Positions 681-39,269 of a DNA stretch of 39,269 nt are shown here, piece after piece (position 1 is the stretch's first letter; the number at the start of each line of letters is the position of its first letter). Below the pieces are notes generated by a model. The model saw only the letters and a program-made list of their open reading frames with translations, was not told where the DNA came from and searched no databases. Origin of the DNA: Chlamydiia bacterium. GTDB taxonomy: Bacteria; Chlamydiota; Chlamydiia; Chlamydiales; SM23-39. The position numbers and the translations under genes are program-made. Location: contig JACQAR010000094.1 in the NCBI GenBank assembly GCA_016194825.1, positions 1-39,269 on the forward strand. The letters run 5' to 3'.

Positions 681-2318
681 ATGATCAGCGCAGAATTCTC
701 CGAAAGTCAGATTAAAATTCTCGAACGTTTTGTCACCAATACAACAAGCAACGTATTTGTATTGAGAAACTTGCCCGAAGTCATTAAAGGAGCGCTTTTC
801 TCTCGCTATTCTCGCTCTACTTTAGGTCTGAGAGCTTTGCTTCTCAAAGAGTTTATCCTCAATGAAGACACCGCCTTCGGCAGTATTGCTGGGAAATTAC
901 TGGAGAGCGATTCAGGACAAGAACAGATGGTCGCAGTGCAAAAAGCACAGAGTTTCTACGATCGGATTCTAGACGGCTATGGCGATGATTCGATTGGAGA
1001 ATTGGGAGGCGCCCATTTGGCCATCGAGAGCATTTCTATGCTGGGTGCAAAAATCATTGAAGATTCTCGGATTGGGGGCTCTCCTTTGGAAAAATCGACC
1101 CGTTACATCTATTTCGATCAAAAAGTAGAAGGGAACTATCTGTTCTACCAAGAGCCCGTGCTGATGACCTCTGCCTTCCGTAACCTTTACGTCGATACGT
1201 GCAATGTACTCTTTGACACGTACAATCAACTCATTCCCTCACTCACCGCACAAATAGAGCAGAGCTTTCCAAAAGATCCCTCCATTTCAAAGGGGGCATA
1301 TACCGCAGCACTTCGTGCAAAAGTGCTCGATTGCTTGAGAGGCTTATTGCCCGCTAGCGCACTGACCAATATGGGAGTATTTGGCAATGGCCGCTTCTAC
1401 GAAGGACTGTTGCAAAAATTGAACTGCCACAACCTGGCGGAAATGCAAGATATCGGCAGGAAATCGCTGACCGAGTTAAATAAGGTCATTCCCTCTTTCA
1501 TTCGTAGAGCAGATCCCGAGCACCGCCACCAGCAGTCTTTCAGTCAGTTCATGGAATCTATGCAAGAGACTCTCGAACGGTTTTCTCAAGAACATGCTAG
1601 AGAAATAGAGAGCTTTTCGGAAGCCTGCGGAGTCCGATTGATCGACGCAGATCCAAAGGGCATTTCTAAAGTGGCAGGAGCTCTTCTATTTTCCCATGCT
1701 CACGGTTCATTAGAGAAGCTCCAAGCATATTGCGCGTCGCTGCCAGAAGAAAAAATCGGAGCCCTCTTTGATGCCGTAACAGCTGGCAGACAAAATCGAA
1801 GGCATAAGTCTCCGCGTGCATTGGAACATGCTGGCTTTACATTTGAGCTGTTAGCCGATTTTGGGGCCTATCGCGATCTGCAGCGCCATAGAATACTCAC
1901 GCAGGAAAGACAAAGACTCACCTGTCATTACGGCTATTATATGCCGCCCGAACTTGCTGGGACGGAGATGGAAAAAGAATATAGAAAGGCAATGGAATTG
2001 GCAAAAACTGCCTATGATCAAATCGCACCCACTCTTCCTGAAGAAGCGCAGTACGTCGTTCCCATGGCCTACAACATCCATTGGTATATACACACCAATC
2101 TGCGTGCGCTGCAGTGGATGTGTGAAATCCGATCTCAAGCAGCAGGTCATAGTACCTATCGCCGCATTGCACAAGAAATGGCCGCTCAGGTGTGCGAGAG
2201 ATTTCCTCTTTTGCAGAAATTTTTCCAGTTCGTCGATTACGAAGGATATGAATTGGGACGACTGAATGCAGAAATGCGGAAAGAGGAAAAGTTGAATCTG
2301 TTGCCCAGAAATGGATGA
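681..2318 (+). CDS. thyX: Flavin-dependent thymidylate synthase, long form
   Basis: 545-aa ORF with a ThyX-type core (ALEHAGFTFELLADFGAYRDLQRHRILTQERQ, containing the RHR signature). GAGG lies 4 nt upstream of the ATG. Its length matches the long chlamydial-type ThyX rather than the ~220-aa form. Confidence 0.8.
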   Translation: MISAEFSESQIKILERFVTNTTSNVFVLRNLPEVIKGALFSRYSRSTLGLRALLLKEFILNEDTAFGSIAGKLLESDSGQEQMVAVQKAQSFYDRILDGYGDDSIGELGGAHLAIESISMLGAKIIEDSRIGGSPLEKSTRYIYFDQKVEGNYLFYQEPVLMTSAFRNLYVDTCNVLFDTYNQLIPSLTAQIEQSFPKDPSISKGAYTAALRAKVLDCLRGLLPASALTNMGVFGNGRFYEGLLQKLNCHNLAEMQDIGRKSLTELNKVIPSFIRRADPEHRHQQSFSQFMESMQETLERFSQEHAREIESFSEACGVRLIDADPKGISKVAGALLFSHAHGSLEKLQAYCASLPEEKIGALFDAVTAGRQNRRHKSPRALEHAGFTFELLADFGAYRDLQRHRILTQERQRLTCHYGYYMPPELAGTEMEKEYRKAMELAKTAYDQIAPTLPEEAQYVVPMAYNIHWYIHTNLRALQWMCEIRSQAAGHSTYRRIAQEMAAQVCERFPLLQKFFQFVDYEGYELGRLNAEMRKEEKLNLLPRNG

Positions 2319-6498: not shown

Positions 6499-7380
6499 AT
6501 GTTTTACAAATTCCTCGTTTTCGTTTTCTCTGGCTTGTCTGTCTGTATCTACGGAACCTCCTGCATCACCTGTGAATTTGAAGGACAGCTCGGCAATCAT
6601 CTCTTTCAGATTGCCGCCGCAACGGCGTATGCTTTAGACCATCAGTGCGAAGCAGTTTTCCCTATGCTCATCGCCTATACCCATGGACAGAGTTATTATC
6701 GCGACGTCTTGCATCGTGTGAGTCTTAAGTCAATTCCCAGACATAGTAAATTGTATCATCATTCTGAAGATCATTATACGCGGTACAGTCCGATTCCTAA
6801 TGTGCACAACAAAACTCTTGTATTGCACGGGCTTTATCAAACCGAAAAGTATTTTGCCCATCATGCCGAAACGATCCGAGCCCTCTTTGCTCCTTCTGAG
6901 AGGATTTTGCAAGAGATTAACGAAAAATATGGAACTCTGTTGCAAAACAACAAGACAGTAGCCATTCACGTAAGAACCTTTATTCCTGATGGGAGATCTC
7001 CAGAGTTATTTGCGGAAGACAACGTTTGGTGGGATTATTTCGCGCAAGCCATCGAGTATTTCCCTTCAGAATATCTGTTTCTCGTATTCATGGACGCGCC
7101 CCATGTGGTGGTGCCGAATTTCCCAAAACTACCTGGTCGCAATATCCAATTCATCATCAACGAGCCGTATTATATCGACTTTTATATGATATCTCTTTGT
7201 AACTATGTTGTGGTTTCTCCTGGCTCTACTTTTTCTTGGTGGGCTGCTTGGATCAATAAGCATGCAGATAAAGTGATCATAGCTCCTGACCGATGGACAG
7301 GTCACTCTGGTGAAGAAGTGATCCCAAATACTTGGATTCGGATCCCCAGCCTGCCTCATGCCCCTAGAGGACGGAAATGA
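6499..7380 (+). CDS. GT11-family glycosyltransferase (alpha-1,2-fucosyltransferase-like), paralog 1, with N-terminal hydrophobic leader
   Basis: N-terminal GQLGNHLFQIAAATAYAL (GT11 motif GGLGNQxFQYA), VAIHVRT, and STFSWWAAWI (GT11 C-terminal motif). The leader is MFYKFLVFVFSGLSVCIYG. Confidence 0.7.
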   Translation: MFYKFLVFVFSGLSVCIYGTSCITCEFEGQLGNHLFQIAAATAYALDHQCEAVFPMLIAYTHGQSYYRDVLHRVSLKSIPRHSKLYHHSEDHYTRYSPIPNVHNKTLVLHGLYQTEKYFAHHAETIRALFAPSERILQEINEKYGTLLQNNKTVAIHVRTFIPDGRSPELFAEDNVWWDYFAQAIEYFPSEYLFLVFMDAPHVVVPNFPKLPGRNIQFIINEPYYIDFYMISLCNYVVVSPGSTFSWWAAWINKHADKVIIAPDRWTGHSGEEVIPNTWIRIPSLPHAPRGRK

Positions 7381-8198
7381 GACTTTTTTATTGGTTACTT
7401 TTGATCGCAGCTAACGTAACAGGAGTGGCCTGGGGAGCTGAATATGTGATGATTTGTCAGGAAGGAGGGCAATTTGGGAGTCAAATGTTTTCGTATGCCA
7501 TGGTCCCTGAAATAGAAGTGGATCAAACTACTTTCCAATGTCTTCCTTATATTGGAAAGAATGGCGCGCCACTTCCTTATGTAAAAGGGAATGTTTGTCT
7601 ATGTAGTACATCCCACGAGCTCTCTTATTTTCACGAGTATCGTGAAAAAATTCGAGAGCTATTCGGGCCTTCTGATGTCGTTATTGCAGAATTAAAAGAG
7701 AAATACGATTTCATATTGAATCATCCTAAAACCGTAGCTGTTCATGTACGGACGTATCATCCGATTTTGTTAAAACATTGCTGTTTGGGATCCGATTACT
7801 ATCAGAATGCTCTGAATCAATTTGATGAAGATCATTTATTTGTGATTTTTTCTGATCGGATTGAATGGTGTAAAAAGCACCTAGATCTGCAAGGCAAGAA
7901 TGCAATATTTATTGAGGGGAACCATCATATCCTCGATTTCTATCTGATGAATTATTGCAAAAACATAATCACATCTAATTCAACTTTTAGCTGGTGGGCC
8001 GCCTATCTCAAGAAGGATCCTAGCGGATTAATCATTGCCCCAAAGCGTTGGTTTTATGATCCGTATGATTCAGATCCGTACGTAAATCGAATAACGAAAC
8101 AGTTTTATCCGAAGGAGTGGATCATACTTCCAGCAGCGTCTCCGTCCCGGGATTATAATTTGTTGGAATTTGATACTACATCAATCGATGAACAGTAG
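7377..8198 (+). CDS. GT11-family glycosyltransferase, paralog 2 (shortened N-terminal region), with leader
   Basis: ATGA overlap. Motifs GGQFGSQMFSYA, HPKTVAVHVRTYHP, and SNSTFSWWAAYLKK. The leader is MRLFYWLLLIAANVTGVAWG. It is close to paralog 3 but lacks ~37 aa after the first motif. Confidence 0.65.
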   Translation: MRLFYWLLLIAANVTGVAWGAEYVMICQEGGQFGSQMFSYAMVPEIEVDQTTFQCLPYIGKNGAPLPYVKGNVCLCSTSHELSYFHEYREKIRELFGPSDVVIAELKEKYDFILNHPKTVAVHVRTYHPILLKHCCLGSDYYQNALNQFDEDHLFVIFSDRIEWCKKHLDLQGKNAIFIEGNHHILDFYLMNYCKNIITSNSTFSWWAAYLKKDPSGLIIAPKRWFYDPYDSDPYVNRITKQFYPKEWIILPAASPSRDYNLLEFDTTSIDEQ

Positions 8199-8207
8199 GA
8201 GTTTTAG

Positions 8208-8876
8208 GTGAGAAATTTAATCATTGCGTGTCTTTTATTTTCGCAAAGCTTGATAAGTCAGGAGTTTCACTCTCAAGCTTATCAAGATCAGTTTGTTCAT
8301 CATTTGCTGTATAAACTTCTTAATAAGCAAGATGAGGGGCATTATCTTGAAATTGGAGCGTGGCAGCCGATTTATATTAATAATACTTACGTGTTTGAAA
8401 AAGACTTCGGATGGAAAGGTGTGAGCATTGATATCTCAGATGCCTATGTACCTGATTGGAAAAAAAACCGTCAAAATATGTTGTTGATCCAAGATGCGAC
8501 AGAAGTAGATTATAATGCGCTGTTACTCTCTTTTCCGTGTATTATTGATTATCTTTCTCTAGACGTTGATGGTAATTATGATGCTGTCTTGCGAAAAATA
8601 CCGCTTAATACCTACAAATTTAAGGTAATTACTATAGAGCATGATTATTACAGATATGGAGATGTCTATAGGAGCAAGGAGCGAGAAATTCTTTCTTCTT
8701 TTGGTTACTGCCTGATTTGCTCTGATGTGTCAATGGGTGGTGATAAATTTGAAGATTGGTGGATACATCCTGATTGTTTTCCTGCTGAAATTGTAATGAA
8801 ATTGCAAGATTTAAATCTGCACGGAAAGGAATATTATCAAATAATAGAAAATCTACAGTCTAGTGAAATCTTATGA
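8208..8876 (+). CDS. Putative FkbM-like SAM methyltransferase with N-terminal leader
   Basis: GTG start with AGGAG upstream. Motifs YLEIGAWQP (motif I-like) and IDYLSLDVDGNYDAVLRKIP...VITIEHD (resembles the FkbM DvEGxE block). The leader is MRNLIIACLLFSQSLISQ. Confidence 0.4.
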   Translation: MRNLIIACLLFSQSLISQEFHSQAYQDQFVHHLLYKLLNKQDEGHYLEIGAWQPIYINNTYVFEKDFGWKGVSIDISDAYVPDWKKNRQNMLLIQDATEVDYNALLLSFPCIIDYLSLDVDGNYDAVLRKIPLNTYKFKVITIEHDYYRYGDVYRSKEREILSSFGYCLICSDVSMGGDKFEDWWIHPDCFPAEIVMKLQDLNLHGKEYYQIIENLQSSEIL

Positions 8877-9805
8877 AGATTTTTGTTTTAGTTTTTCTGA
8901 TTGTTGGTAAATGTCTGGCTAGGGATTATGTAACAATTTGCGAGGAATGGGGGCAATTTGGTAGCCAACTTTTTTCCTATGCAATCGTAATGAGTTGGGC
9001 ATGGACTCATGATAAAATACCAGTTTTCTCAAAAGAATTTTTAATTGGGAGGCCTGGGGGGCAACTCAATTACGATCGAATTTTTCATCGGTTACCGCAA
9101 AATATTTCGGGAGATATACATATTAATCCCGATAAGCCTTATCACATTGGCAAATATCAGAGTATAGGGGGAATCCCCTGTCATTTTGTTCCTGGCAATG
9201 TTTGCATGTGTGGGGTAACGCATGAATTTACATACTTTGATCCATATAAAGATCGAATTCGTGAGCTTTATGCAGCACCAGCTGAAGTCTTAAGTGAATT
9301 AAAAGGAAAATATTCTCGGATCCTTGATCATCCCAAAACGGTGGCAGTTCACATAAGGACCTATCATCCTCAACTTGAATTACATTGTTTTTTAGGCGAA
9401 GAGTATTACCAAACAGCAATGGATTTTTTTGATGATGAGCATTTATTTGTGGTATTTTCAGATAGAATAGAGTGGTGTAAAAGGCATTTGAATTGGCAAG
9501 GCGAGAATGTTGTGTTTATTGAGGGTAATGATTATATAACTGATTTTTATTTAATGACTTTTTGTAAAAATCTTGTGACCAGCAATTCTACTTTTAGTTG
9601 GTGGGCAGCATACCTCAAGCAAACTCCTGATGGATTAATCATTGCTCCGAATCGATGGTTTTATGACCCATACGACGCCGATCCATATTTAAATCGAATT
9701 TCAAAGAATTTCTATCCGAACGATTGGGTTATTCTCTCTGTTCCATCACCGGAGCGAGATTGGACTTTAATAGAGTACAAAACAAGTTCGCTTCATGAAA
9801 ATTAA
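8873..9805 (+). CDS. GT11-family glycosyltransferase, paralog 3, with leader
   Basis: ATGA overlap. Motifs WGQFGSQLFSYA, HPKTVAVHIRTYHP, and SNSTFSWWAAYLKQ. The leader is MKIFVLVFLIVGKCLA. Confidence 0.7.
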   Translation: MKIFVLVFLIVGKCLARDYVTICEEWGQFGSQLFSYAIVMSWAWTHDKIPVFSKEFLIGRPGGQLNYDRIFHRLPQNISGDIHINPDKPYHIGKYQSIGGIPCHFVPGNVCMCGVTHEFTYFDPYKDRIRELYAAPAEVLSELKGKYSRILDHPKTVAVHIRTYHPQLELHCFLGEEYYQTAMDFFDDEHLFVVFSDRIEWCKRHLNWQGENVVFIEGNDYITDFYLMTFCKNLVTSNSTFSWWAAYLKQTPDGLIIAPNRWFYDPYDADPYLNRISKNFYPNDWVILSVPSPERDWTLIEYKTSSLHEN

Positions 9806-9811
9806 AAAATC

Positions 9812-9840
9812 TTGACGGTATGAAAAATTTTCTTTATAAT
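9812..9840 (+). promoter_or_regulatory. Near-consensus sigma-70/66 promoter for the GT17 gene
   Basis: TTGACG (9812-9817), a 17-nt spacer, then TATAAT (9835-9840). GGAGG (9860-9864) lies 4 nt before the ATG at 9869. Confidence 0.55.
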
Positions 9841-9868
9841 CCATCGGTACGTTTTTAACGGAGGTTTT

Positions 9869-10714
9869 ATGAGAAAATTTTTTCTTGCAATGCTGATTTT
9901 GGTCTCTGGTTGGAGCCAAGCTGCTGAACGAAATTACAAGATTTATGACTGTTTCCCATTTTTGAATGAATATGACCTGTTGGCAATCCGTTTGCGCGAG
10001 TTGTCAGATAAGGTAGATTATTTTGTCTTGATGGAAGCGGTAGAAACGTTCCGAGGCAATCCTAAGCCTTTATATTTCCAACAAAATAAGCACCTTTTTG
10101 AGCCTTATTTGCACAAGATTATCCATGTTGTAGTGAATGAGCGGTATAAACCAGGAACCGCTGATCCTTGGGGAAGAGAAGAATTCCAAAAAAACCAAGT
10201 CATCCGAGGACTGGTCAACTGCTCACCGAATGATGTAATCATCATCAATGACTGCGATGAAATCATTCGAAATAGAAACTTCGATGAGATGCTTGAGATT
10301 CTACAGGCAGGCGGGCACGGAAGAATCGTTTCCTGTGAGGGCGGATTTTATCAGTTTTTTTACAACCGAAAAATGGGAGAGTGGAACGGCCCAGCTATGA
10401 CTCACTTTTCTACAGTGCAAGCACTGAGCCCTGATGGCATTCGAGCGCGTAGAGATCATTGCGGCTTTCATGTCCGAAATGCAGGATGGCATTTCAGCAA
10501 TATGGGGGGCTTAAAGACGTATGTGGAAAAACTGGCCTCCTTTTCTCATGGTGAAGCAGATATTCCCTTGCATAGAGATCCAAACCATATTTACGGCGCA
10601 GTCCAAGGCCTGCGTCTTGTGGAAATTGATGACAGTTTCCCCGAATACATCAAAGAAAACGTAGAGTATTTCCGATCTAAGGGATTGCTCGATGATGGCA
10701 CAGGGTATCGCTAG
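9869..10714 (+). CDS. GT17-family glycosyltransferase (bisecting beta-1,4-GlcNAc-transferase-like) with N-terminal leader
   Basis: YKIYDCFPFLNEYDLLAIRLRELSDKVDYFVLMEAVETFRGNPKPLYF matches the characteristic start of the Glyco_transf_17 domain. The leader is MRKFFLAMLILVSGWSQAAE. Confidence 0.7.
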   Translation: MRKFFLAMLILVSGWSQAAERNYKIYDCFPFLNEYDLLAIRLRELSDKVDYFVLMEAVETFRGNPKPLYFQQNKHLFEPYLHKIIHVVVNERYKPGTADPWGREEFQKNQVIRGLVNCSPNDVIIINDCDEIIRNRNFDEMLEILQAGGHGRIVSCEGGFYQFFYNRKMGEWNGPAMTHFSTVQALSPDGIRARRDHCGFHVRNAGWHFSNMGGLKTYVEKLASFSHGEADIPLHRDPNHIYGAVQGLRLVEIDDSFPEYIKENVEYFRSKGLLDDGTGYR

Positions 10715-17962: not shown

Positions 17963-18533
17963 ACAATATCTGAGTGATTTCATCCCAGGAAGAGGCTGTT
18001 TCCAATTCCGTATGATGCACTTTATGTGGATCAAAGAGAATCTTTCGGACATTGTCAGGGAATTGTGGGTGCTGCAAAACTTCTGGGAGATCATCAATAA
18101 AGACAGCACACTTTTGTGTGCGGATGCGTTGCAGTTTTTCTTCGAGCGTCAATTCAAAAAAAGCGGGTGGTTTCCAAGGAAAGTCTTGCGATTGAAACCA
18201 TTGCATCGCAGCTGCATGCAAATCATAGGCGGGTCCCAAAAAGGGGTGCTTAGTCTTATGGCTGATGACGTAAATGGGGGTGTTCTTGCTCTGGCTCAGC
18301 TGCAGAAATCGATCTACTCCAGGAAAAGCGGAAGCAAGATTCATCCGCTGTCCATAGATATAGCCTTGTAGCTCTGTCCAGGATGTTTCTTGTTTTTGCT
18401 GGCGTAAATAATCACGCACACCATTTTTTGAGTGGGGAATGGTTTCAGGAACGAGCTCTCGTTCTCGAGCTGCTTGATAAAAGGCATCGTCGTAACAGAC
18501 AATGGTATTATCAAAGTCGATGCCAATGGTCAT
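17952..18533 (-). CDS. HAD-superfamily hydrolase/phosphatase
   Basis: It starts MTIGIDFDNTIV (HAD motif I DxDxT) and has FIDD near the C-terminus (motif IV-like). ATGA overlap with the upstream ADH gene. Confidence 0.55.
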   Translation of the reverse strand: MTIGIDFDNTIVCYDDAFYQAARERELVPETIPHSKNGVRDYLRQQKQETSWTELQGYIYGQRMNLASAFPGVDRFLQLSQSKNTPIYVISHKTKHPFLGPAYDLHAAAMQWFQSQDFPWKPPAFFELTLEEKLQRIRTQKCAVFIDDLPEVLQHPQFPDNVRKILFDPHKVHHTELETASSWDEITQILYGS

Positions 18534-19561
18534 GGTGCACTCATGTCGATGATGGGACGTAAGGTGTGTCCCTGTTCGAGATCGCTCAACGCTTGTTCAA
18601 TCTGAGATAAGCTATAGCTTTTGCCGATTAGAGGTTTCACATTGAGTTGTCCGTAGTGAATCAAATTGCAATAGCGAGGATAATGCACATCGGGGTGATT
18701 GTCGCCTCCCCAGGTTCCCAAAATGCGCTTTCCCTGGTTCAATTCTTTTGGATCCAGAGACCAGAAGTGTTCTTGTTTTGCATTGCCGATGATCACAGCA
18801 GTTCCTCCCTGAGAGCGAACCGATTTGAGTGCTTGGTTCATGACGGCAGGGTGACCGCTTGCCTCAATGGCGTAATCGAGAGGGCCGATTTTTTGAATGG
18901 CTTGGATGGGATCTTCTTTTGAGGCATCGATGACGTGGGTGGCGCCCATTTGTTTTGCGCTTTCGAGCTTAGAAGCTTGGATATCAACAGCAATGATCGG
19001 CACGCAGCCGGCGATAGCTGCTCCTTTAATTGCGCAAAGACCAATGCCGCCGCATCCGAAGACGGCCAAACTCTCTCCGGCTCGCGGTTTTGCTGTGTTA
19101 AAAACTACTCCCAAGCCTGTTGGAATGGCGCATCCGAGTAAAGCGGCCTCCTTCATCGGGAAATCATTCCGAATGGGGGTGAGGCGATTTTCGCTGATGA
19201 TCGAATATTTGCTAAATGTTGTAATCGCACCTGCATTGACCTTTTGCCCTTTCCAATCGAAAATCGAACCGGCGATATTCGCGCCTGATCCTTTAATCCA
19301 GGAGAGAATGACTGCATCACCTGGCTTGACTTTTTCTACTTTTTCTCCCACTTCCACCACGACTCCACTGCCTTCATGTCCCAAACAGTGAGGAAGGTAG
19401 GGGTCTTTGCCCCGATGGCCTCGGTATTCTAAGACTTGGGTATGGCAGACGCCGCTATATTTGACCTCAATGAGGACTTGTCCTGGCTTTAGCGGGGGCA
19501 GAGTCAGGGTATCAATCACAATCCGATTGATATCAACGAGGATGGCTGCTGGTGTTTGCAT
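18530..19561 (-). CDS. Zinc-dependent medium-chain alcohol/polyol(-phosphate) dehydrogenase
   Basis: Motifs GVCHTQ, GHEGSGVVVEVG (zinc ligands), and GCGGIGLCAI (NAD(P) Rossmann). Confidence 0.8.
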   Translation of the reverse strand: MQTPAAILVDINRIVIDTLTLPPLKPGQVLIEVKYSGVCHTQVLEYRGHRGKDPYLPHCLGHEGSGVVVEVGEKVEKVKPGDAVILSWIKGSGANIAGSIFDWKGQKVNAGAITTFSKYSIISENRLTPIRNDFPMKEAALLGCAIPTGLGVVFNTAKPRAGESLAVFGCGGIGLCAIKGAAIAGCVPIIAVDIQASKLESAKQMGATHVIDASKEDPIQAIQKIGPLDYAIEASGHPAVMNQALKSVRSQGGTAVIIGNAKQEHFWSLDPKELNQGKRILGTWGGDNHPDVHYPRYCNLIHYGQLNVKPLIGKSYSLSQIEQALSDLEQGHTLRPIIDMSAP

Positions 19562-20471
19562 AAAAACCTATTTTTTGTTCGATCCGATTAGCGATAGCTT
19601 GTGGGGTCAATCCGAATTGCTCTCGGATGTATTTTTGTGAACCGATGGGATGGGGAAAACGATCTTGCGTCCCGATGCGAAGCAGAGGGGTCGTGATCGA
19701 TTGATCCACAAGCCATTCAGCGACTGCAGAGCCGAAGCCTCCCATCAAACTGTGTTCTTCCAGCGTGACAAGCAGAGAAAAACGATGAGAGATATCTTGC
19801 AAGAGCTCGGTATCTAGGGGCTTGACTGTATGCATGCTGATGATGGCAGGAGGTTCTTTCAAGAGTTTTGAGGCTTCCATTGCTACTGAGAGCATATTCC
19901 CTGTGCTCAAGATGCAAATTTCTGTGCCTTTTTGAATCCAAGATCCTTTGCCGATCGCAATCTCTGGTACGGAAGAATAGATTTGCGGCTCGCCTGTTTT
20001 CCCAATCCTCATATACATGGGGCCAGGCCAGTTGAGACTTGCCCGCAAAAGAGCTCTTAGCTCCAGAGCATCGGCTGGACAAAGAACAGTCATATTGGGG
20101 ATGGTTCTGAGAAAGGCAATGTCCTCGCAAGAGTGATGCGTGCATCCCAAAGAAGCGTAAGAGAGGCCAGCACCCGTTCCTACAATGAGGACAGGAACTT
20201 GGTGGTAGCAAATATCATCTCGGATCTGCTCTAGACAGCGGGTTGTATTGAAGGGTGTGATGGTATAGGTGATGGGTCTCAGCCCACACATGGCCATTCC
20301 GGCAGCGACACTGGCCATATTGGCCTCGGCCACGCCGCAGTTGAAAAAACGGTTGGAGAATTTTGTTTTGAAGGGCTCGAAGAGCCGGTTCCCAATATCC
20401 CCTGAAAGCAGGACAATCCGAGAGTCGCTTCCCGCCAGTTGGCCAATTTCATCTGCAAATGCATTTCTCAT
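19533..20471 (-). CDS. Transketolase, C-terminal (pyrimidine-binding) subunit
   Basis: FFNCGVAEANMASVAAGMAMCGLRP, typical of the split transketolase B subunit. ATG 20471 overlaps the upstream TGA by 1 nt (the track's TTG at 20474 is an alternative). Confidence 0.85.
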   Translation of the reverse strand: MRNAFADEIGQLAGSDSRIVLLSGDIGNRLFEPFKTKFSNRFFNCGVAEANMASVAAGMAMCGLRPITYTITPFNTTRCLEQIRDDICYHQVPVLIVGTGAGLSYASLGCTHHSCEDIAFLRTIPNMTVLCPADALELRALLRASLNWPGPMYMRIGKTGEPQIYSSVPEIAIGKGSWIQKGTEICILSTGNMLSVAMEASKLLKEPPAIISMHTVKPLDTELLQDISHRFSLLVTLEEHSLMGGFGSAVAEWLVDQSITTPLLRIGTQDRFPHPIGSQKYIREQFGLTPQAIANRIEQKIGFYANTSSHPR

Positions 20472-21283
20472 CAAACACCTAGTTCCGCTTTTGCCTTGGC
20501 TAACTCTTCATCGTTCGGAATCCGGTAGTGCCAGTTGTTATCATCTCTCATGAATGAAACCCCTTCTCCTTTCACGGTATGCGCGATGATTGCGGTCGGT
20601 TTCCCTCTCGTTTCGGGGATCTTAGAAAATACGGACAAGATCTCCTGAAAATTGTGGCCGTCAATCTCATATGTTTGCCATCCAAAGGCTTCCCATTTTT
20701 CTTTCAAAGGAGACAGTTGCATGATTTCTTGGCTTCTCCCTGTAGCCTGCCATTTATTGAAATCGACAATAGCAATCAGGTTGTCTAATTTGCGGGCGGG
20801 AGCAAACATCGCAGCTTCCCAAACAGAGCCCTCATTGCACTCGCCGTCGCTCAAAAGAACCATGAGTCGGTACGATTCGTTGAGGATGCGCCCTGCTAAG
20901 GCCTGCCCAATGGCAACCGACAAGCCATGCCCTAGAGATCCGGTCGCCATTTCCACTCCCGATACGCATTTCGGAGTGGGGTGTTCCGGCAATGCCCCTC
21001 CATCTTTATTGAATGTTTTGAGCCATTCGCTAGGAAAAAATTTTCTCTTGGCCAAGAGTGCGTATAAGGTGCTGATTGCGTGACCTTTGCTTAAAATAAA
21101 ACGATCTCGCAGTCGGTGTTGAGGCAATTGGGGGTCAATCTGCAAGAATTCGTAATAGGCAGCGACGAGAATATCTACGCAAGATAGAGAAGAGCCTAGG
21201 TGAGGGGCTTTTCCTATTTTGGACATTTCAATGATTGTATAGCGGATTTCTCTTGCTATGCGTTGTAAATCTTCGATTTCCAT
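20471..21283 (-). CDS. Transketolase, N-terminal (ThDP-binding) subunit
   Basis: Motifs APHLGSSLSCVDILVAAYY and LLSDGECNEGSVWEAAMFA. The start is set at MEIEDLQRIAREIR (ATG 21283), which fits the family N-terminus. The track's start at 21331 would overlap the GT2 gene by 76 nt. Confidence 0.85.
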   Translation of the reverse strand: MEIEDLQRIAREIRYTIIEMSKIGKAPHLGSSLSCVDILVAAYYEFLQIDPQLPQHRLRDRFILSKGHAISTLYALLAKRKFFPSEWLKTFNKDGGALPEHPTPKCVSGVEMATGSLGHGLSVAIGQALAGRILNESYRLMVLLSDGECNEGSVWEAAMFAPARKLDNLIAIVDFNKWQATGRSQEIMQLSPLKEKWEAFGWQTYEIDGHNFQEILSVFSKIPETRGKPTAIIAHTVKGEGVSFMRDDNNWHYRIPNDEELAKAKAELGV

Positions 21284-22170
21284 AAACCTTTTCGCAGTTT
21301 TCTCGCGACTAAATGAAGAAAAGCACTCCATCGATTCGGCTTCAAAAATTCAGCAGGAATGGCTCTGAAAACCCATCCCAAAAGACAGGCGCGATAAAAC
21401 AGCTTTTGTGAGGGCTGTTGATCCAGAAATTTTAAAAATTGCCTGGCGCCCGCTTTTCTTGTTTCTTTCGTGCGCACGAGTTTAGCACTGTAAGAATGAG
21501 AATGGGAATAGAGATAGGCAAGAACTTCTGGGAGGTAAACGACCCCCTCATTGAGGGCGATATAATGAAAGAGATACCAGTCGCATTTTTCTCGGATTGC
21601 GGCCTCAAATTTTCCATATCGGATGACCGATTCTTTTTTGACGATTGTTGTGTGACCCGGGATCCAAAAGTTGGATGTTTGCAATTGCTTAATGAGCGTG
21701 TCTGGTTGCAAAACGACAGGAGCTGAGACTCCTTTTAAAAGGGGGAAGGAGAAGAGATGGGATCTTCCGGTTCGCTCCTCTACATACCCAAAATCAGAAC
21801 AACAGATTCCAATCGCTGGGTTTGCCAAAAGCGCCTCCATCGATTTTCTGAGGAACTGACGGTCTCGAAAATCATCTGCTGCGAGCCAATGGATGTATTT
21901 TCCCTGCGCCAGATCGATGCTATGGTTCACCGAAAAGTGGGTTCCTCGATTTTGTTCATAGAAAATGGGGCGGATATAGGGGTATTTGCGGGCATATTCC
22001 TGGATGATGTCTCGACTATTATCTGTGGAAGCATCATCAATGATAATCAGCTCCATTTGTTCAGAGGGGAAGTCCTGGATGAGAATGGAATCAATGGCAT
22101 CACGAATAAAATGTGCGTAATTGTAGCTTTGAATGACGACGGAAAGGAGCGGCTGTGATGACATTGCCAT
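21256..22170 (-). CDS. GT2-family glycosyltransferase
   Basis: LSVVIQSYNYAHFIRDAIDSILIQDF...LIIIDDASTDNS (GT-A DxD region). Confidence 0.8.
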   Translation of the reverse strand: MAMSSQPLLSVVIQSYNYAHFIRDAIDSILIQDFPSEQMELIIIDDASTDNSRDIIQEYARKYPYIRPIFYEQNRGTHFSVNHSIDLAQGKYIHWLAADDFRDRQFLRKSMEALLANPAIGICCSDFGYVEERTGRSHLFSFPLLKGVSAPVVLQPDTLIKQLQTSNFWIPGHTTIVKKESVIRYGKFEAAIREKCDWYLFHYIALNEGVVYLPEVLAYLYSHSHSYSAKLVRTKETRKAGARQFLKFLDQQPSQKLFYRACLLGWVFRAIPAEFLKPNRWSAFLHLVARKLRKGLWKSKIYNA

Positions 22171-22188: not shown

Positions 22189-23475
22189 CTATATGAGTAA
22201 ATGTTCATATTTTCTCAGAAACATTTTCCCGACCCGAGCCTGAGAGCCTTTGGAAGGATTAAAGGAGCTGAGCATGGATTTAAAGCGGAGTTGAAGCTCC
22301 TGGTCTTTGGCCTCTATTTGTAATCGATTCTCTAGCCGATCAAACATCTCTAACACCGTATCTAGTATTTCTTCAGGTGCATTTTCTGTTAATTCTATTT
22401 GGAACTCATTGTATTCGTTGCTATTGATGGAAGTGGAAAGGAAGGATTGCAGACAAATCGAGAAGGGAATCCATTTCTGATCTACTTTCGATTTTTGGAG
22501 CTTAAAGATCACAATATCATCTTCTTTTGAAGCGACTCCCAGGATGCCAAAGGGAACGACATTGACCCAGATACAAGGAACGCCAAAGAGACTCGCAGTC
22601 ACTGTTAGGCCGCTATTATTGCCGAGAAAAAATCGGCAATGAGACACCAAAAATATATCCATAAAGTCACTGACATACTCCGTATGAGGGTAGTCAATGA
22701 TTCTAGGAGAGGCGAGAGAGGGAGGGAGCGGACTTGCGAATGCTGACCCTGTACGAATGCACCACCCTCCTCTTTGGACTATTTCTTCTAGGGCAAGCTG
22801 TAAATGTTCGATCTTGGCATTACGACAAGTGGTTTCATGGGGAGCATAATACCCTTCTTCACGGCAATTGAAGCAGACAAACCATGCATCTTTTGGAACG
22901 CCTAGTTTCTCTAGGATGGCTCTTCCTTGCTGTTTCTGTTTTATATCTAGGGAAAGTAGGGGAGAAAAGCCTCTGTTCTTTTCAAATTTATCTCGAAACG
23001 CGTTGTGAATGGATATGTAATCCCAGCCGGGCCGATAGTTTCTGGCAAATTTTAACTGCAAATAATAATCGCAATCATATTGTAATAGCGGCGATTTCAG
23101 AATGGGGTAAAGAAGGATATATAGAAAGAGATTGTCAATAACAAAGAAGTGTTTGCGCCAGCAATCTAAAAGTGTTTGGTTGCACACTGCAGATCGCAAA
23201 GACTTCTCAAATAAAAATGAACGAAAAGGGGGAAAGAGAATGGTGCGATGCTTGTTGTTCAAAATCAAATGTTCTCGGAGATAAAGATCGGGTTCTACCG
23301 CAAGATGACCGATGGCTTGAAATTTCACAGCCAGCACGCGCACCTTGGCAAGCTTTAAAAGAAAAGCGACGGGAAGCAACAGCCAAGTCAATCCTTCTAA
23401 GCTTTTTTTGATGAGCAGGTGCAATATTCTACGGGACCAGGAAGAATCGTTAAGAGGGCGAATGGCTCTTTTCAT
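22189..23475 (-). CDS. Uncharacterised 428-aa protein, putative GT-B-like glycosyltransferase
   Basis: The only recognisable feature is the C-terminal-half block FFLGNNSGLTVTASLFGVPCIWVN, which resembles nucleotide-sugar-binding loops of GT-B enzymes. ATGA overlap with the upstream gene. Confidence 0.3.
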   Translation of the reverse strand: MKRAIRPLNDSSWSRRILHLLIKKSLEGLTWLLLPVAFLLKLAKVRVLAVKFQAIGHLAVEPDLYLREHLILNNKHRTILFPPFRSFLFEKSLRSAVCNQTLLDCWRKHFFVIDNLFLYILLYPILKSPLLQYDCDYYLQLKFARNYRPGWDYISIHNAFRDKFEKNRGFSPLLSLDIKQKQQGRAILEKLGVPKDAWFVCFNCREEGYYAPHETTCRNAKIEHLQLALEEIVQRGGWCIRTGSAFASPLPPSLASPRIIDYPHTEYVSDFMDIFLVSHCRFFLGNNSGLTVTASLFGVPCIWVNVVPFGILGVASKEDDIVIFKLQKSKVDQKWIPFSICLQSFLSTSINSNEYNEFQIELTENAPEEILDTVLEMFDRLENRLQIEAKDQELQLRFKSMLSSFNPSKGSQARVGKMFLRKYEHLLI

Positions 23476-24587
23476 CTTATTTCTAAATGCTGAAGGGTTT
23501 TGGCGAACGTACTTTCACAATGGTATTCTGCATAGCTTTGCCGCATGATTTCAAGTCTTTTATGCAATATTTGATCCCCTAATAAATCAGACATGCGATG
23601 CTCAAAACACGACCAATCCACAATGTAGTCAGAAAGATCATAACGCAGGCATTCGTGAGACATCCAGGTGTCTGCTTGGACTAGAGGGATTGCTTGGCTC
23701 AAGATAGCCTCCACAAAAATTCCCGAGGTTCGATTTCCGTAAATCTGCTTATCATAAGGAAGTAAGACAAAGTGTACCCGACTCAGCCACGTACAATATT
23801 CCTCGCGTGAAAGGATGCTAGGTAAAAATTGCACTTTCTTATGTTGAAAAGTAGGGTCCGTTTGTAGAGCATCAGCGACAAGCAGTTGTATTGGCTGTGA
23901 GCTTTGTGACAATCTCCGCGAAAACTCTACAATCATGGTGAGCCCTTTCTCACTTCTCGGAGGGCCTGGCCACCAACACAGAATGGGGGAAGCGGAGAGC
24001 GTCTGTTTGCGAAAGACGCCTTGTGTATGCGGAATAGGAATCACGCGGACAGGTTTTTGCAAAAAAAGGGAAAGCTCTTTCGCAATGGGCTCGCTATCAC
24101 TCAATAACACTGTTCCATTTTTCCCAATCCCCCAATCAAATAATTTTTGAAGAAGTCGATGGATTTTCCCTCCGGTTTTCAACTGTCCAGGTGCAAAGCG
24201 GATCATATGCCAAAACTGTACCTTGGGGCGGATGCAAAAAAGAGCTACAGCTAAGGCGGCTAAAACGGGAAGCGTGTAGTATTCGAGGAATAGAACTGCT
24301 TTTTTAGTTCTCAGTTTGCGCAAAAAATAGAAGAAAAAGAGAAGGTTCCCAAAGAAGGGGCGCAGCAGTCTTTCCACAACTGAAAAAGTTCCCATTATTT
24401 GTGTGTTGAAATGGAGGGCCCGTATCCAAGTTTTTGGAGGCGCCTGAATCTGACAATTTTTGGGAATTAAGGAGATATGTTTCCAACCATTGGTGCGGGC
24501 TGCTTGAGAAACAGAGTGATTGTAGATGGCTACATGCCCACTTTCATCGTGTAAAGAGGGAAGGAGAGAGTAAAGAATTGTCTTCAT
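23472..24587 (-). CDS. Uncharacterised putative glycosyltransferase, paralog a
   Basis: It aligns end to end by eye with 25545-26612 (LFLEYY/LFLEHF, VIPIPH/VVPIPH, CWWPG, LLPYD, TSGIFVEAI). The SGIFVEAI block resembles the GT-B EX7E region. Confidence 0.4.
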   Translation of the reverse strand: MKTILYSLLPSLHDESGHVAIYNHSVSQAARTNGWKHISLIPKNCQIQAPPKTWIRALHFNTQIMGTFSVVERLLRPFFGNLLFFFYFLRKLRTKKAVLFLEYYTLPVLAALAVALFCIRPKVQFWHMIRFAPGQLKTGGKIHRLLQKLFDWGIGKNGTVLLSDSEPIAKELSLFLQKPVRVIPIPHTQGVFRKQTLSASPILCWWPGPPRSEKGLTMIVEFSRRLSQSSQPIQLLVADALQTDPTFQHKKVQFLPSILSREEYCTWLSRVHFVLLPYDKQIYGNRTSGIFVEAILSQAIPLVQADTWMSHECLRYDLSDYIVDWSCFEHRMSDLLGDQILHKRLEIMRQSYAEYHCESTFAKTLQHLEIR

Positions 24588-24590
24588 TAA

Positions 24591-26608
<2,018 letters not shown>

Positions 26609-26612
<4 letters not shown>

Positions 26613-27292
26613 ACAACCAGAGATTTTAACACGTTTTGGGCATCTTGGAGCGATTGAGGCGTGCCGATGTCGATAAAAGTAGCAGAGTGGCGATAGGCAA
26701 ACACTCCTTGCGGGATAAGGGTGGGGAAAATGTCTTTTTCTAAAGAACAAGACCGAAGGGGAAAAGCTTCTAGCGCTTTTTTTTGCATGAGGTAGATGCC
26801 GGCATTGATCCAGCCGGGTTTAGATTCTCCCCGCTTTTCCTGAAAGCAGCGGATGCGTCCCGTCTCTTCTAACTCCAGAGAGCCATAGCGGCTAATGTCT
26901 TCGATATGATGGCAGGCAATCGTAGCGACAGCGGAATGGGTGCGGTGGAGCTCGAGGAAAGGAGCCAGTGGCAGATCAAAAAAAGAATCGCCGTTCATGA
27001 CCAGAAAAGTCTCTGCGCGGATTTTAGAGAGAGCATTGAGGAGCGCGCCTCCGGTGCCAAGAGGGGCAGTTTCCCAGGAGTATTCGATTGGCAAGTGGAG
27101 GCTGTTTACATAGTCGACAATGGCTTGCGCCCTGTGCCCGATGGCAAGGACGATCTTGCTCACTTGCCAGTGGGTGAGCTGATCGAGCAGAATTTTGAGG
27201 AAAGGGATCTGTTGGATCGGAGCCAGGGCTTTTGGAAGATTAGGCAATGCGAGGCGGGTTCCAAGCCCACCGACTAATAGAAGTGCTTCCAC
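26609..27292 (-). CDS. Sugar-1-phosphate nucleotidyltransferase (HddC-like heptose-1-phosphate guanylyltransferase candidate)
   Basis: LLVGGLGTRL (GGxGTRL) at the N-terminus and a ~227-aa single domain. It lies adjacent to a GHMP kinase, as in hddA-hddC pairs. GTG start. Confidence 0.65.
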
Positions 27293-29569: not shown

Positions 29570-30480
29570 AAATGTTAGTCACCGGTGCAAGTGGATTTTT
29601 AGGGAGATTTTTGGTGCCGCACCTCAAAAAAGAGGGGCATGAGGTTGTTGAAGTTTCTTCCAAAAACTGCGATCTGACGCAAGCCGACTCGCTGACCCAA
29701 TTCAATGCTCACCGCTTCGATCAGATCTACCATTTGGCCGCATGGACGCAGGCAGGTGATTTTTGTCTGCGCCATCCAGGAGAGCAGTGGCTCATCAACC
29801 AAAAACTCAACACGCATATGCTCGACTGGTGGCAGAAGCGTCAGCCGCAGGCGAAGATGATTGCCATGGGCACCAGCTGCTCCTACGATCCTCAGCTTCC
29901 TCTAGAAGAAAAAAATTATATGGTAGGAGAGCCGATCGATAGCCTCTTTACCTACGCGATGACCAAGAGAATGCTCTATGCAGGTCTTATGGCTTTACAT
30001 AAGCAATATGGACTGGAATTTCTCTATGTGATTCCTTCTACTTTATATGGCGGCGGCTATCATACCGACGGAAGACAGCTCCACTTCATCTTCGATTTGA
30101 TCCGGAAGATTCTCCGAGGCAAGCTCTACGGCGATGCTGTCGTGCTGTGGGGCGATGGGATGCAAAAAAGAGAGCTCGTGCATGTGCAAGATTTCATCCA
30201 GAACTTACAGCTATTGGCGGAAAGGGAAAAAAATACCTTGATCAACATTGGCGAGGGAAAAGAGCATTCTATCCGAGAGTATGCCCAACTGATCTGCGAA
30301 GAGGTGGGCTATCCATTTGAGAAGGTGCAATTCGATGTGTCCAAATATGTGGGGGCTCGCTCGAAGGTGCTCTCCATTCAGAAGTTGCAGCACATTCTAG
30401 GGCACTACTCGACTGTTCCCTTGAAACAAGGGATCCGAGAGGTCATTGCGTGGTTTCAAGAGCATTCGGAAGTTTTGTAA
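29566..30480 (+). CDS. GDP-L-fucose synthase-family (Fcl/WcaG-like) nucleotide-sugar epimerase/reductase
   Basis: Motifs VTGASGFLGRFL, HLAAW, MGTSCSYDPQLPLEE and YAMTKRM (YxxxK). The layout is typical of Fcl and related GDP-6-deoxyheptose reductases. ATGA overlap. Confidence 0.65.
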   Translation: MKMLVTGASGFLGRFLVPHLKKEGHEVVEVSSKNCDLTQADSLTQFNAHRFDQIYHLAAWTQAGDFCLRHPGEQWLINQKLNTHMLDWWQKRQPQAKMIAMGTSCSYDPQLPLEEKNYMVGEPIDSLFTYAMTKRMLYAGLMALHKQYGLEFLYVIPSTLYGGGYHTDGRQLHFIFDLIRKILRGKLYGDAVVLWGDGMQKRELVHVQDFIQNLQLLAEREKNTLINIGEGKEHSIREYAQLICEEVGYPFEKVQFDVSKYVGARSKVLSIQKLQHILGHYSTVPLKQGIREVIAWFQEHSEVL

Positions 30481-39146: not shown

Positions 39147-39163
39147 ATATGTAAATCGGTCAG

Positions 39164-39192
39164 ATGGTAGCGGATTCTCAGACAAAGTACAA
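39164..39192 (-). promoter_or_regulatory. Possible promoter for topA
   Basis: On the minus strand: TTGTAC (39192-39187), a 17-nt spacer, then TACCAT (39169-39164), 17 nt upstream of the ATG. Pattern match only. Confidence 0.25.
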
Positions 39193-39269
39193 GTCTGAAA
39201 CAAGAACCTATCCCATTAAAAGGGTTTCGTCGCTTTTGCGGATTATTTTGGCCGCTTTTCGATTCAAAA

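Follow-up and report, generated by a model that had tools for sequence, protein, structure and literature searches.

Sec-like leaders on a block of glycosyltransferases and a methyltransferase in a chlamydial lipopolysaccharide-type glycan locus

On which side of the inner membrane do the glycan-modifying enzymes of an obligate intracellular bacterium work? The textbook answer for bacteria is that nucleotide-sugar glycosyltransferases (GTs) and sugar methyltransferases dependent on S-adenosylmethionine (SAM) sit on the cytoplasmic side, and that periplasmic tailoring is carried out with lipid-linked donors and GT-C enzymes. The question is raised by five consecutive genes in a 39,269-nt stretch of DNA (the window, analysed at its full length) from contig JACQAR010000094.1 of the Chlamydiia bacterium assembly GCA_016194825.1. 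They encode three GT11-family enzymes, an FkbM-like methyltransferase and a GT17-family enzyme, and they are a translationally coupled block within a chlamydial lipopolysaccharide (LPS)-type glycan locus. A preliminary description of the window had claimed a Sec-like leader on all five, and the open reading frames (ORFs) and N-termini that it quoted are present exactly at its coordinates. Judged from their residues, the leaders look like cleavable Sec signal peptides, not like type II anchors or cytoplasm-facing tethers. Export of the enzymes, which that description had raised, is the reading that best fits this leader anatomy. The five genes and their leaders are as follows.

6499-7380, plus strand: gene 1, GT11a, GT11-family glycosyltransferase, 293 aa (PF01531, 46.6 bits); leader at residues 1-19, 6499-6555, plus strand, MFYKFLVFVFSGLSVCIYG followed by TS
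7377-8198, plus strand: gene 2, GT11b, GT11-family glycosyltransferase, 273 aa (PF01531, 92.0 bits); leader at residues 1-20, 7377-7436, plus strand, MRLFYWLLLIAANVTGVAWG followed by AE
8208-8876, plus strand: gene 3, FkbM-like SAM-dependent methyltransferase, 222 aa, GTG start (named from its homologs and the fold of its model); leader at residues 1-17/18, 8208-8261, plus strand, MRNLIIACLLFSQSLIS followed by QE
8873-9805, plus strand: gene 4, GT11c, GT11-family glycosyltransferase, 310 aa (PF01531, 87.7 bits); leader at residues 1-16, 8873-8920, plus strand, MKIFVLVFLIVGKCLA followed by RD
9869-10714, plus strand: gene 5, GT17-family glycosyltransferase, 281 aa (PF04724, 94.2 bits); leader at residues 1-18, 9869-9922, plus strand, MRKFFLAMLILVSGWSQA followed by AE

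Each of the five proteins opens with one or two Lys or Arg residues, an uncharged hydrophobic core of 8-16 residues (given as 12-18 in the preliminary description) and a small -3/-1 site. The first conserved catalytic-domain motif lies 2-8 residues past the predicted cleavage site, which bears out the earlier remark that it follows the leader immediately. When one rule was applied to all genes, an N-terminus of Lys or Arg followed by a hydrophobic run was found in 5 of the 5 block genes and in 0 of the 32 other genes of the window; the chance of exactly that partition is 1/C(37,5), or about 2e-6, with the adjacency of the five genes not counted in. All five leaders also fit the anatomy of Sec signals cleaved by signal peptidase I, for which we took a positive n-region, a hydrophobic core of about 7-15 residues, a polar c-region and small residues at -3/-1.

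Could the leaders be annotation artefacts that arose from picking upstream start codons? A clear Shine-Dalgarno motif is missing for genes 1 and 4, and a few database homologs appear leaderless or truncated, as an artefact would predict. However, genes 1 and 4 offer no alternative in-frame start past the leader and ahead of the first catalytic motif, and the other three genes offer few. Shine-Dalgarno motifs lie 8-11 nt 5' of the leader-including starts of gene 2 (GAGGA, -10), gene 3 (AGGAG, -11) and gene 5 (GGAGG, -9), and ATGA overlaps couple genes 1/2 and 3/4; because of these motifs and overlaps, the leaders are not over-extended ORF calls. The leader form is, moreover, kept in hundreds of homologs from independent assemblies. 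A start-codon artefact was thus rejected on the Shine-Dalgarno motifs, the overlaps and the scarcity of alternative starts, and we regard it as hardly credible.

Leader anatomy was compared across 235 leader-bearing homologs, namely, 60 of GT11c, 61 of GT17 and 114 of the FkbM-like protein. The hydrophobic core has a median length of 11-12 residues (interquartile range, 9-15) and reaches 18 residues or more in 8 of the 235 sequences (4/60, 1/61 and 3/114). A net positive N-flank is seen in 82-87% of the homologs, the 15 residues past the core are net neutral or negative in 73-90%, and the charge bias predicts an N-in/C-out orientation in 202 of the 235 (49/60, 53/61 and 100/114). A small -3/-1 site is found in about 90%, and the spacer from the leader to the conserved domain has a median of 6-15 residues. 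Lipobox-like motifs occur in 4/77, 1/62 and 0/120 members of the three homolog sets and motifs resembling those of twin-arginine translocation (Tat) in 2, 1 and 1; lipoprotein and Tat signals were rejected because both kinds of motif are essentially absent. The charge difference (N-flank minus C-flank) is +2 to +3 for the window leaders, +1 to +3 for the textbook cleaved signal peptides of OmpA, PhoA, MalE, Bla, DsbA and LamB, and -5 and -6 for the cytoplasm-facing N-terminal anchors of WaaA and LpxK, with the control sequences entered by hand. None of the window leaders shows the WaaA/LpxK arrangement, in which a hydrophobic N-terminus is followed by a positive cluster, and none shows that of a eukaryotic type II Golgi anchor, given the short core and the missing stem.

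These measurements bear on what the preliminary description had called the more ordinary alternative. The hydrophobic N-termini may be uncleaved tethers that keep the enzymes on the cytoplasmic side of the inner membrane, near a lipid-linked acceptor and the sugar-nucleotide pathway encoded by the locus. Such tethering would suit the leaderless cytoplasmic enzymes that the locus encodes for ADP-heptose and for GDP-heptose or deoxyhexose-type donors, the use of GDP-sugars by GT11-fold enzymes, and the fact that GT11 and GT17 proteins of other bacteria are leaderless cytoplasmic members of polysaccharide loci. It would more easily explain the leader that some chlamydiae carry on the GDP-mannose 4,6-dehydratase Gmd (see below), and it agrees with the lack of a cysteine signature of an oxidising compartment. 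Yet the charge asymmetry is opposite to that of WaaA and LpxK, with an N-in/C-out bias reckoned at 85-88% of homologs, and it disfavours an anchor facing the cytoplasm. At their median length, the cores could not reach across a bilayer. The gap between the leader helix and the first buried beta-strand is just about 5 residues long, and most homologs have a small -3/-1 site after the core. On balance, we consider tethering unlikely.

If the leaders are export signals, how are they distributed? What is conserved in all four families is the form of the leader and not its sequence. An N-extension with a hydrophobic core is present in about 60 of the 75 members of the GT11c set, in essentially all of the roughly 60 nearest GT17 homologs (more-distant ones begin with MIYDCF) and in 114 of the 120 best FkbM-like homologs (105 of the 120 at a stricter threshold). 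For GT11a, an exhaustive search that returned 14,509 relatives gave 32 leader-bearing proteins, 4 without a leader and 9 fusions among the 50 nearest representatives; at ranks 100-149, leaderless relatives outnumber leader-bearing ones 23 to 12. In a neighbor-joining tree of GT17, the leader-bearing and leaderless classes separate. Among GTDB reference genomes, the leader is present in 18/18 GT17 loci labelled chlamydial and, outside of these, in three unlabelled loci and two labelled Verrucomicrobia. About 54 GTDB GT17 loci are leaderless, with proteins that start with M[IV]YDCF or a close variant, and belong to Bacteroidota, Alpha-, Beta- and Gammaproteobacteria, Firmicutes, Spirochaetes, Bdellovibrio, Patescibacteria, Kiritimatiellaeota, Actinobacteria and other Verrucomicrobia. 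The named homologs of the block proteins are from Chlamydiota (Protochlamydia, Rhabdochlamydiaceae, Simkania, Anoxychlamydiales and Parachlamydiales), with the taxonomy of the GT11 clade resting on a few named matches and on one chlamydial locus, L022.

The cytoplasmic GT11 alpha-1,2-fucosyltransferases of bacteria (FutC, WbgL and WbsJ type) and the leaderless GT17-like enzymes of bacterial polysaccharide loci share their Pfam families with the block enzymes, as well as the HxR, S(T)FSWWAAYL, YDCF and DxD motifs and, for GT11, the predicted GDP-sugar fucosyltransferase fold. They differ in that they start at the first catalytic motif (M[IV]YDCF; MKIVKLKGGLGNQ in P0075), whereas the chlamydial proteins add a Sec-type leader of 16-30 residues. 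The earlier claim that ordinary bacterial relatives are leaderless is thereby shown directly for GT17 and for distant GT11 proteins. In Lachnospiraceae, Eisenbergiella and Spirochaetales, GT11 and GT17 genes without leaders lie together in the same loci; therefore, the GT11/GT17 module is an ordinary one in bacteria and the leader is a chlamydial addition. The preliminary description had held that nesting among ordinary bacterial homologs with the same leaders would speak against it. The block genes do nest among same-leader homologs, but these are chlamydial and not ordinary bacteria, so the leaders are a trait of the whole phylum and not a peculiarity of the window. In the history that we favor, an ordinary cytoplasmic module of bacterial polysaccharide loci would have been retargeted, by gain of signal peptides, within Chlamydiota.

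A different history had also been proposed, in which a eukaryote or a giant virus donated the genes together with a type II Golgi signal anchor, which has been kept as the leader. Eukaryotic FUT1 and FUT2 (GT11) and MGAT3 (GT17) do belong to the same CAZy and Pfam families, which are prominent Golgi families in eukaryotes, and their catalytic domains are non-cytoplasmic, as those of the block enzymes would be if the leaders work as predicted. In these Golgi proteins, a cytoplasmic tail is followed by a helix of about 17-23 residues that crosses the whole bilayer and then by a stem region ahead of the catalytic domain. The leaders of the block have no such tail, long segment or stem; their short core is followed by a signal-peptidase-type site and, 2-8 residues on, by the catalytic motif, so that the layout is not "exactly" that of the Golgi enzymes, as had been stated. 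Giant viruses encode GT11-fold proteins, and the best viral structural match of GT11c is an alpha-1,2-fucosyltransferase of Bodo saltans virus (template-modelling [TM] score, 0.74; 26% identity). Some giant-virus-sized contigs also carry GT17 relatives, many of which were found in IMG/VR at 28-41% identity, but nearly all of these start with MKIYDCF or have fused N-terminal domains. In the viral set, a convincing leader was found only on the GT17 proteins of two contigs of 6 and 41 kb (L096 and L097; MKWFLILLMIPLTLTAKV), which perhaps consist of chlamydial DNA that was wrongly binned as viral or belong to an element associated with chlamydiae.

By tblastn, viral relatives reach at most 41% identity for GT17 and, over the full length, at most 32% for GT11, versus 45-58% for the chlamydial GT11 relatives; outside the chlamydiae, the closest relatives are bacterial proteins without a leader (33-38% identity). 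Furthermore, leaders of the same kind occur on the FkbM-like methyltransferase and on Gmd, which are not Golgi-anchored enzymes. Since the viral relatives are distant and almost all leaderless and non-Golgi enzymes carry leaders too, a retained eukaryotic or viral anchor is not supported, and we consider such an acquisition very improbable. Two scans of viral sequences and a viral fold search returned distant, mostly leaderless relatives, and a giant-virus origin was rejected on that outcome.

Are the enzymes behind the leaders intact? GT11a, GT11b, GT11c and GT17 all score above the Pfam gathering scores (23.9 bits for PF01531 and 26 bits for PF04724). In the GT11 alignment, H160, R162, S239 and S242 are invariant, W243, W244, A246, Y247 and L248 are nearly so, and the STFSWWAAYL motif is kept. 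The model of GT11c (predicted local distance difference test [pLDDT] score, 91) has a GDP-fucose fucosyltransferase fold that matches AtFUT1, FUT8, NodZ and POFUT1; its leader forms a separate helix (residues 2-13), and the first buried strand, beta-1, spans residues 19-24. The classical GT11 motif is HxRRGDY. The GT11 proteins of the window read HVRT(Y/F) at this position, and so their donor or acceptor specificity may differ. In GT17, the residues expected to form the DxD-type metal-binding motif (D128, D130 and E131) do not vary, and the YDCF motif is kept as well; an N-glycan acceptor, as in the transfer of bisecting beta-1,4-GlcNAc by MGAT3, seems unlikely for this enzyme because its gene sits in a bacterial LPS-type locus. 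No NCBIfam match was found for any of the five block proteins, an exact-sequence look-up of the window GT17 matched nothing, and sequence searches of the PDB with genes 3, 4 and 5 gave no relatives.

Gene 3 is harder to name. It has no Pfam or NCBIfam match, even at an E value of up to 10, and does not reach the gathering score of PF05050. BLASTP revealed no similarity to the true FkbM protein of the window. Its 852 homologs at 52-63% identity have chlamydial names where names are given, some of them "FkbM family methyltransferase," and precomputed PF05050 matches exist for 3 of the 120 homologs listed. The model (pLDDT, 91.4; residues 1-20 of low confidence) has a class I SAM-methyltransferase fold. 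Almost all of its best 50 PDB matches are SAM methyltransferases (probability, 1.0; TM score, 0.4-0.5), including the sugar C-methyltransferases KijD1 and TcaB9, and the family keeps a YLEIGA motif in which G44 and G50 are invariant (glycine-rich motif I). The assignment of gene 3 as an FkbM-like methyltransferase rests on the homolog names, the PF05050 matches of those few homologs and the confidently modelled fold. A SAM methyltransferase is not a Leloir enzyme, and therefore the phrase "five Leloir-type enzymes" in the title of the preliminary description overstates the case, although its family assignments (three GT11 proteins, a GT17 protein and a methyltransferase) hold. In both models, the leader lies outside the fold. 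Because motifs are kept, folds are intact and leaders lie outside them, the block enzymes appear to be active, with an expected need for GDP-sugars or UDP-sugars and for SAM.

Within the block, the ATGA overlaps are complemented by gaps of 9 nt (genes 2-3) and 63 nt (genes 4-5). GT11b and GT11c are 51% identical in a local BLASTP alignment and 58% in alignment A2. The GC content of GT11b is 0.39 and that of the FkbM-like gene is 0.35, and the pair of an FkbM-like gene followed by a GT11 gene recurs in the related contig L002. Two further features of the block are as follows.

9812-9840, plus strand: promoter-like TTGACG-17-TATAAT in the 63-nt gap 5' of GT17, with 11/12 positions matching
7377-9805, plus strand: low-GC cassette of GT11b, the FkbM-like gene and GT11c (GC content, 0.35-0.39; GC content at third codon positions [GC3], 0.30-0.37)

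In a promoter and terminator scan of the region, promoter-like sites were not more numerous than expected from shuffled sequence, so the first of these features is weak evidence of a promoter. The other 32 genes of the window have a GC content of 0.469 +/- 0.024 and a GC3 of 0.496 +/- 0.049, both higher than in the cassette, and genes 2-4 look like an inserted cassette from their low GC content.

What kind of locus holds the block? GmhA-like and HldE-like genes lie directly upstream of it. HddA-, HddC- and Fcl-like genes are present as well, tentatively, since all are under the NCBIfam cutoffs. The locus further contains several short-chain dehydrogenase/reductase (SDR) dehydratases or epimerases, C- and O-methyltransferases, a split transketolase-like pair, GT2, GT90 and two GT9 heptosyltransferases. 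Further genes of this context are as follows.

32476-34323, plus strand: MsbA-like ABC exporter (Pfam)
34310-35437, plus strand: GT9 heptosyltransferase (Pfam)
35253-36521, minus strand: Wzy_C/WaaL-like membrane protein (Wzy_C, 22.3 bits, below the gathering score of 31.7)
36564-39203, minus strand: topoisomerase I with a C-terminal SWIB domain (Pfam: Topoisom_bac, Toprim, zinc ribbons and SWIB)

The fusion of TopA with SWIB is a chlamydial hallmark, and it agrees with the homolog names in pointing to a chlamydia as the host organism. The heptose, sugar-nucleotide, GT2/GT9/GT90, MsbA-like and WaaL-like neighbor genes all lack leaders. Similar glycan loci exist in the related contigs L001 and L002; in other chlamydial genomes, a leader-bearing GT17 gene is flanked by MsbA-, WaaL-, GT9- and GT2-type genes in L004, L013, L018 and L022, adjoins TopA-SWIB homologs in L004 and L022, and stands beside HddA, HddC, Fcl and C-methyltransferase genes in L024.

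Several other features of the window were recorded along the way. An A16 homopolymer at 31312-31327 lies in the 3' part of the GT90 ORF (30450-31457, plus strand), which overlaps an over-extended GT9 ORF (31250-32530) by about 200 nt at this tract; the tract could reflect slipped-strand phase variation in a glycosyltransferase gene, an assembly indel or a pseudogene. The window GT90 has no leader, whereas that of L002 is leader-bearing. On the minus strand, positions 18530-21331 encode the split transketolase-like pair (TK_N and TK_C), a zinc alcohol dehydrogenase, an APH-family kinase and a HAD-like protein. This set is conserved beside C-methyltransferases within chlamydial glycan loci, L001 and L002 among them, and hints that an unusual branched or higher-carbon sugar is made there. 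Three ORFs of 371-428 aa at 22189-24587 and 25545-26750 (minus strand) have no Pfam match: those of 371 and 401 aa look paralogous, and that of 428 aa, a homolog of which is present in L001, has an N-terminal hydrophobic segment after many basic residues. All three are probably uncharacterized glycosyltransferase-like proteins. Finally, at 545 aa, the ThyX protein encoded at 681-2318 (plus strand) is of unusual length; with its two Thy1-domain stretches, it looks like a duplicated or fused ThyX.

Leaders on enzymes of this kind extend well beyond the block. In 25 chlamydial loci, many GT17 neighbors also have classical leaders, and in a contig of a Parachlamydiaceae metagenome-assembled genome (L005:200-12700; contig_62823), about 14 leader-bearing ORFs of 200-330 aa are packed around GT17. 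They include two GT25 proteins, one FkbM methyltransferase and a family without a Pfam match that has a RILTFHCNQA motif and recurs in L009 and L011. Leader-bearing proteins near GT17 in other chlamydial metagenome-assembled genomes are a Sulfotransfer_1 protein of the type that uses 3'-phosphoadenosine-5'-phosphosulfate (PAPS; L004, minus strand, 266 aa), a protein of the Golgi-type family GT34 (GMA12/MNN10; L064, plus strand, 254 aa) and a GT2-TPR protein (L009, plus strand, 691 aa), and L002 has leader-bearing GT90 and DUF1796 proteins. One leader-bearing GT17 is fused to an N-terminal methyltransferase-like domain (L009:5290-6760, plus strand, 491 aa); a PF13578-PF04724 fusion of 443 aa (P0136) has no leader. 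In Rhabdochlamydia porcellionis, the FkbM-like gene stands alone, outside any glycan locus.

Even Gmd, which modifies a sugar nucleotide, has an N-extension resembling a signal peptide (e.g., MRKLLCFFVFLTSVLCFASE) at L020:4437-5582, L246:3971-5110 and L264:263-1471 (all plus strand). In L020, the Gmd domain (509 bits) starts at residue 33 and no alternative start precedes it; the leader of the Fcl-like protein of the same contig is ambiguous, as translation may in fact begin at an internal Met24. Among 80 close metagenomic relatives of Gmd, 75 start ordinarily (MKKAL...), and convincing leaders are those of L246 and L264. Gmd in L246 is followed by five more leader-bearing ORFs, one of them GT34-like. 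Thus, as L005, L246 and the other loci surveyed indicate, some Chlamydiota carry blocks of leader-bearing enzymes that use cytosolic cofactors.

What might such enzymes do outside the cytoplasm? In the mechanism that we favor, Sec signal peptides would move the catalytic domains across the inner membrane, where the enzymes would tailor an already exported envelope glycan. The likeliest acceptor would be the LPS core or O-chain after flipping by MsbA and WaaL-type ligation; a bacterial glycan is proposed as the acceptor because MsbA-, WaaL- and GT9-type genes, as well as sugar-nucleotide genes, recur beside the leader-bearing ones. The three GT11 enzymes would probably add 6-deoxyhexose or fucose-like residues, GT17 an N-acetylhexosamine-type residue and the FkbM-like enzyme O-methyl groups. 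If the catalytic domains are exported, GDP-sugars, UDP-sugars and SAM are needed, and would have to be available, outside the bacterial cytoplasm; either bacterial donors would reach the periplasm or host nucleotide sugars and SAM would be used. A host supply seems plausible because an obligate intracellular bacterium imports host nucleotides and cofactors through its periplasm. We judge it rather likely, over all destinations taken together, that the block enzymes are exported across the inner membrane, and we assign a probability of roughly 0.55 to export with action on the bacterial envelope glycan.

Several points weigh against this mechanism. (i) Cleavage and translocation are predicted by simple sequence rules, and gene 1 has an uncharged run of 21 residues, continuous with the first beta-strand, that could serve as an uncleaved anchor. 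(ii) No conserved cysteines specific to the leader-bearing clades were found and hence no sign of an oxidising compartment; this test did not discriminate, because the conserved cysteine columns are common to the leader-bearing and leaderless classes. (iii) Some close relatives (L003 and P0095-P0097) have no leader. (iv) We know of no source of GDP-sugars, UDP-sugars or SAM in a bacterial periplasm, and the leaderless HddA-, HddC-, Fcl-, GmhA- and HldE-like enzymes of the locus fit more naturally with glycosyltransferases that face the cytoplasm. (v) The leader on a sugar-nucleotide-modifying enzyme such as Gmd is hard to explain; it would mean that even donor synthesis takes place outside the cytoplasm, in what would need to be a metabolite-rich compartment.

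Exported enzymes need not stay in the periplasm. They may be released, by type II secretion or in outer membrane vesicles, to the inclusion lumen or the host and act there as glyco-effectors on host or inclusion glycans with host nucleotide sugars. The leader evidence serves this explanation as well as it serves action on the envelope. GT11, GT17, GT34, GT90 and sulfotransferases are typical of the eukaryotic secretory pathway, GDP-mannose, the substrate that a leader-bearing Gmd would require, is plentiful in host cells, the FkbM-like gene of R. porcellionis has no glycan locus around it, and the low-GC cassette suggests an accessory, mobile function. The inclusion lumen is, moreover, supplied with UDP-glucose: in Chlamydia trachomatis, GlgA is type 3 secreted into it and uses UDP-glucose imported by the host transporter SLC35D2 (Gehre et al. 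2016, PMC4829429). However, the repeated linkage to MsbA-, WaaL- and GT9-type and sugar-nucleotide genes speaks for a bacterial acceptor, neither genes of a secretion system nor host-targeting motifs were found in the vicinity, and there is no sign of passage across the outer membrane. We therefore regard a host-directed role as improbable.

The GlgA/SLC35D2 system resembles the mechanism proposed here in that a chlamydial Leloir-type enzyme works outside the cytoplasm on a host nucleotide sugar, and by analogy with this precedent (PMC4829429), a host donor supply would be plausible. It differs in its type 3 secretion and its glycogen product; the block enzymes have Sec-type signals, are glycan-tailoring transferases in an LPS-type locus and are known from sequence. 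In its broadest and more tentative form, the proposal is that Chlamydiota run a Golgi-like glycan tailoring outside the cytoplasm, in which soluble, Sec-exported enzymes in the periplasm or inclusion lumen draw their donors from the host. The toolkit would comprise GT11, GT17, GT25, GT34 and GT90 proteins, FkbM methyltransferases, sulfotransferases and, in some lineages, Gmd, and would use host GDP-sugars, UDP-sugars, SAM and PAPS on bacterial surface glycans or on host or inclusion glycans. As a joint claim, this is possible, but we hold it with less than even confidence.

Tailoring after export is in itself familiar in bacteria. GT-C enzymes with polyprenyl-phosphate-linked donors modify LPS and O-antigen in the periplasm, as in GtrABC, ArnT and the three-component pentofuranose systems (PMC11127046). 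Like the step proposed for the block enzymes, these systems decorate the glycan after export, on the periplasmic side. They differ in that they flip a lipid-linked donor and are integral membrane enzymes, whereas the block enzymes have predicted soluble Leloir folds of the GT-A/GT-B type, next to a SAM methyltransferase. No GtrA- or GtrB-like genes were seen beside the block enzymes.

For the methyltransferase, the closest parallel comes from rhizobia. NodZ, a GDP-fucose-dependent fucosyltransferase, and NoeI, an FkbM-family O-methyltransferase, produce the 2-O-methylfucose of Nod factors. As in the block, an enzyme with a fucosyltransferase fold is paired with an FkbM-like methyltransferase, and NodZ is among the structural matches of GT11c; NodZ and NoeI are cytoplasmic and without a leader, and the substrate of the chlamydial pair is assigned by analogy to them. 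On this analogy, the pair of FkbM-like and GT11 genes suggests a methylated deoxyhexose product.

The families themselves are already known; what is new is a phylum-wide export signal on several of them. A literature search of incomplete coverage found no description of Sec-leader GT11, GT17 or FkbM proteins in Chlamydiae or other bacteria or of periplasmic Leloir glycosylation in bacteria; the one precedent that it brought up was the GlgA/SLC35D2 system. At least four families of enzymes that use cytosolic cofactors gained Sec signals across one phylum, which means either that activated donors exist outside the chlamydial cytoplasm or that enzymes of this type have an unusual membrane topology in Chlamydiota. 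A pathway in the periplasm or inclusion lumen would, if true, be categorically unusual: Leloir-type glycosylation would be seen for the first time in the periplasm of a bacterium, and metabolic parasitism would have taken a new form. Extracytoplasmic donors would likewise widen the idea of the inclusion as a metabolic compartment from glycogen to the remodelling of surface or host glycans. The leaders thus bear on the composition of the LPS and surface antigens of environmental chlamydiae.

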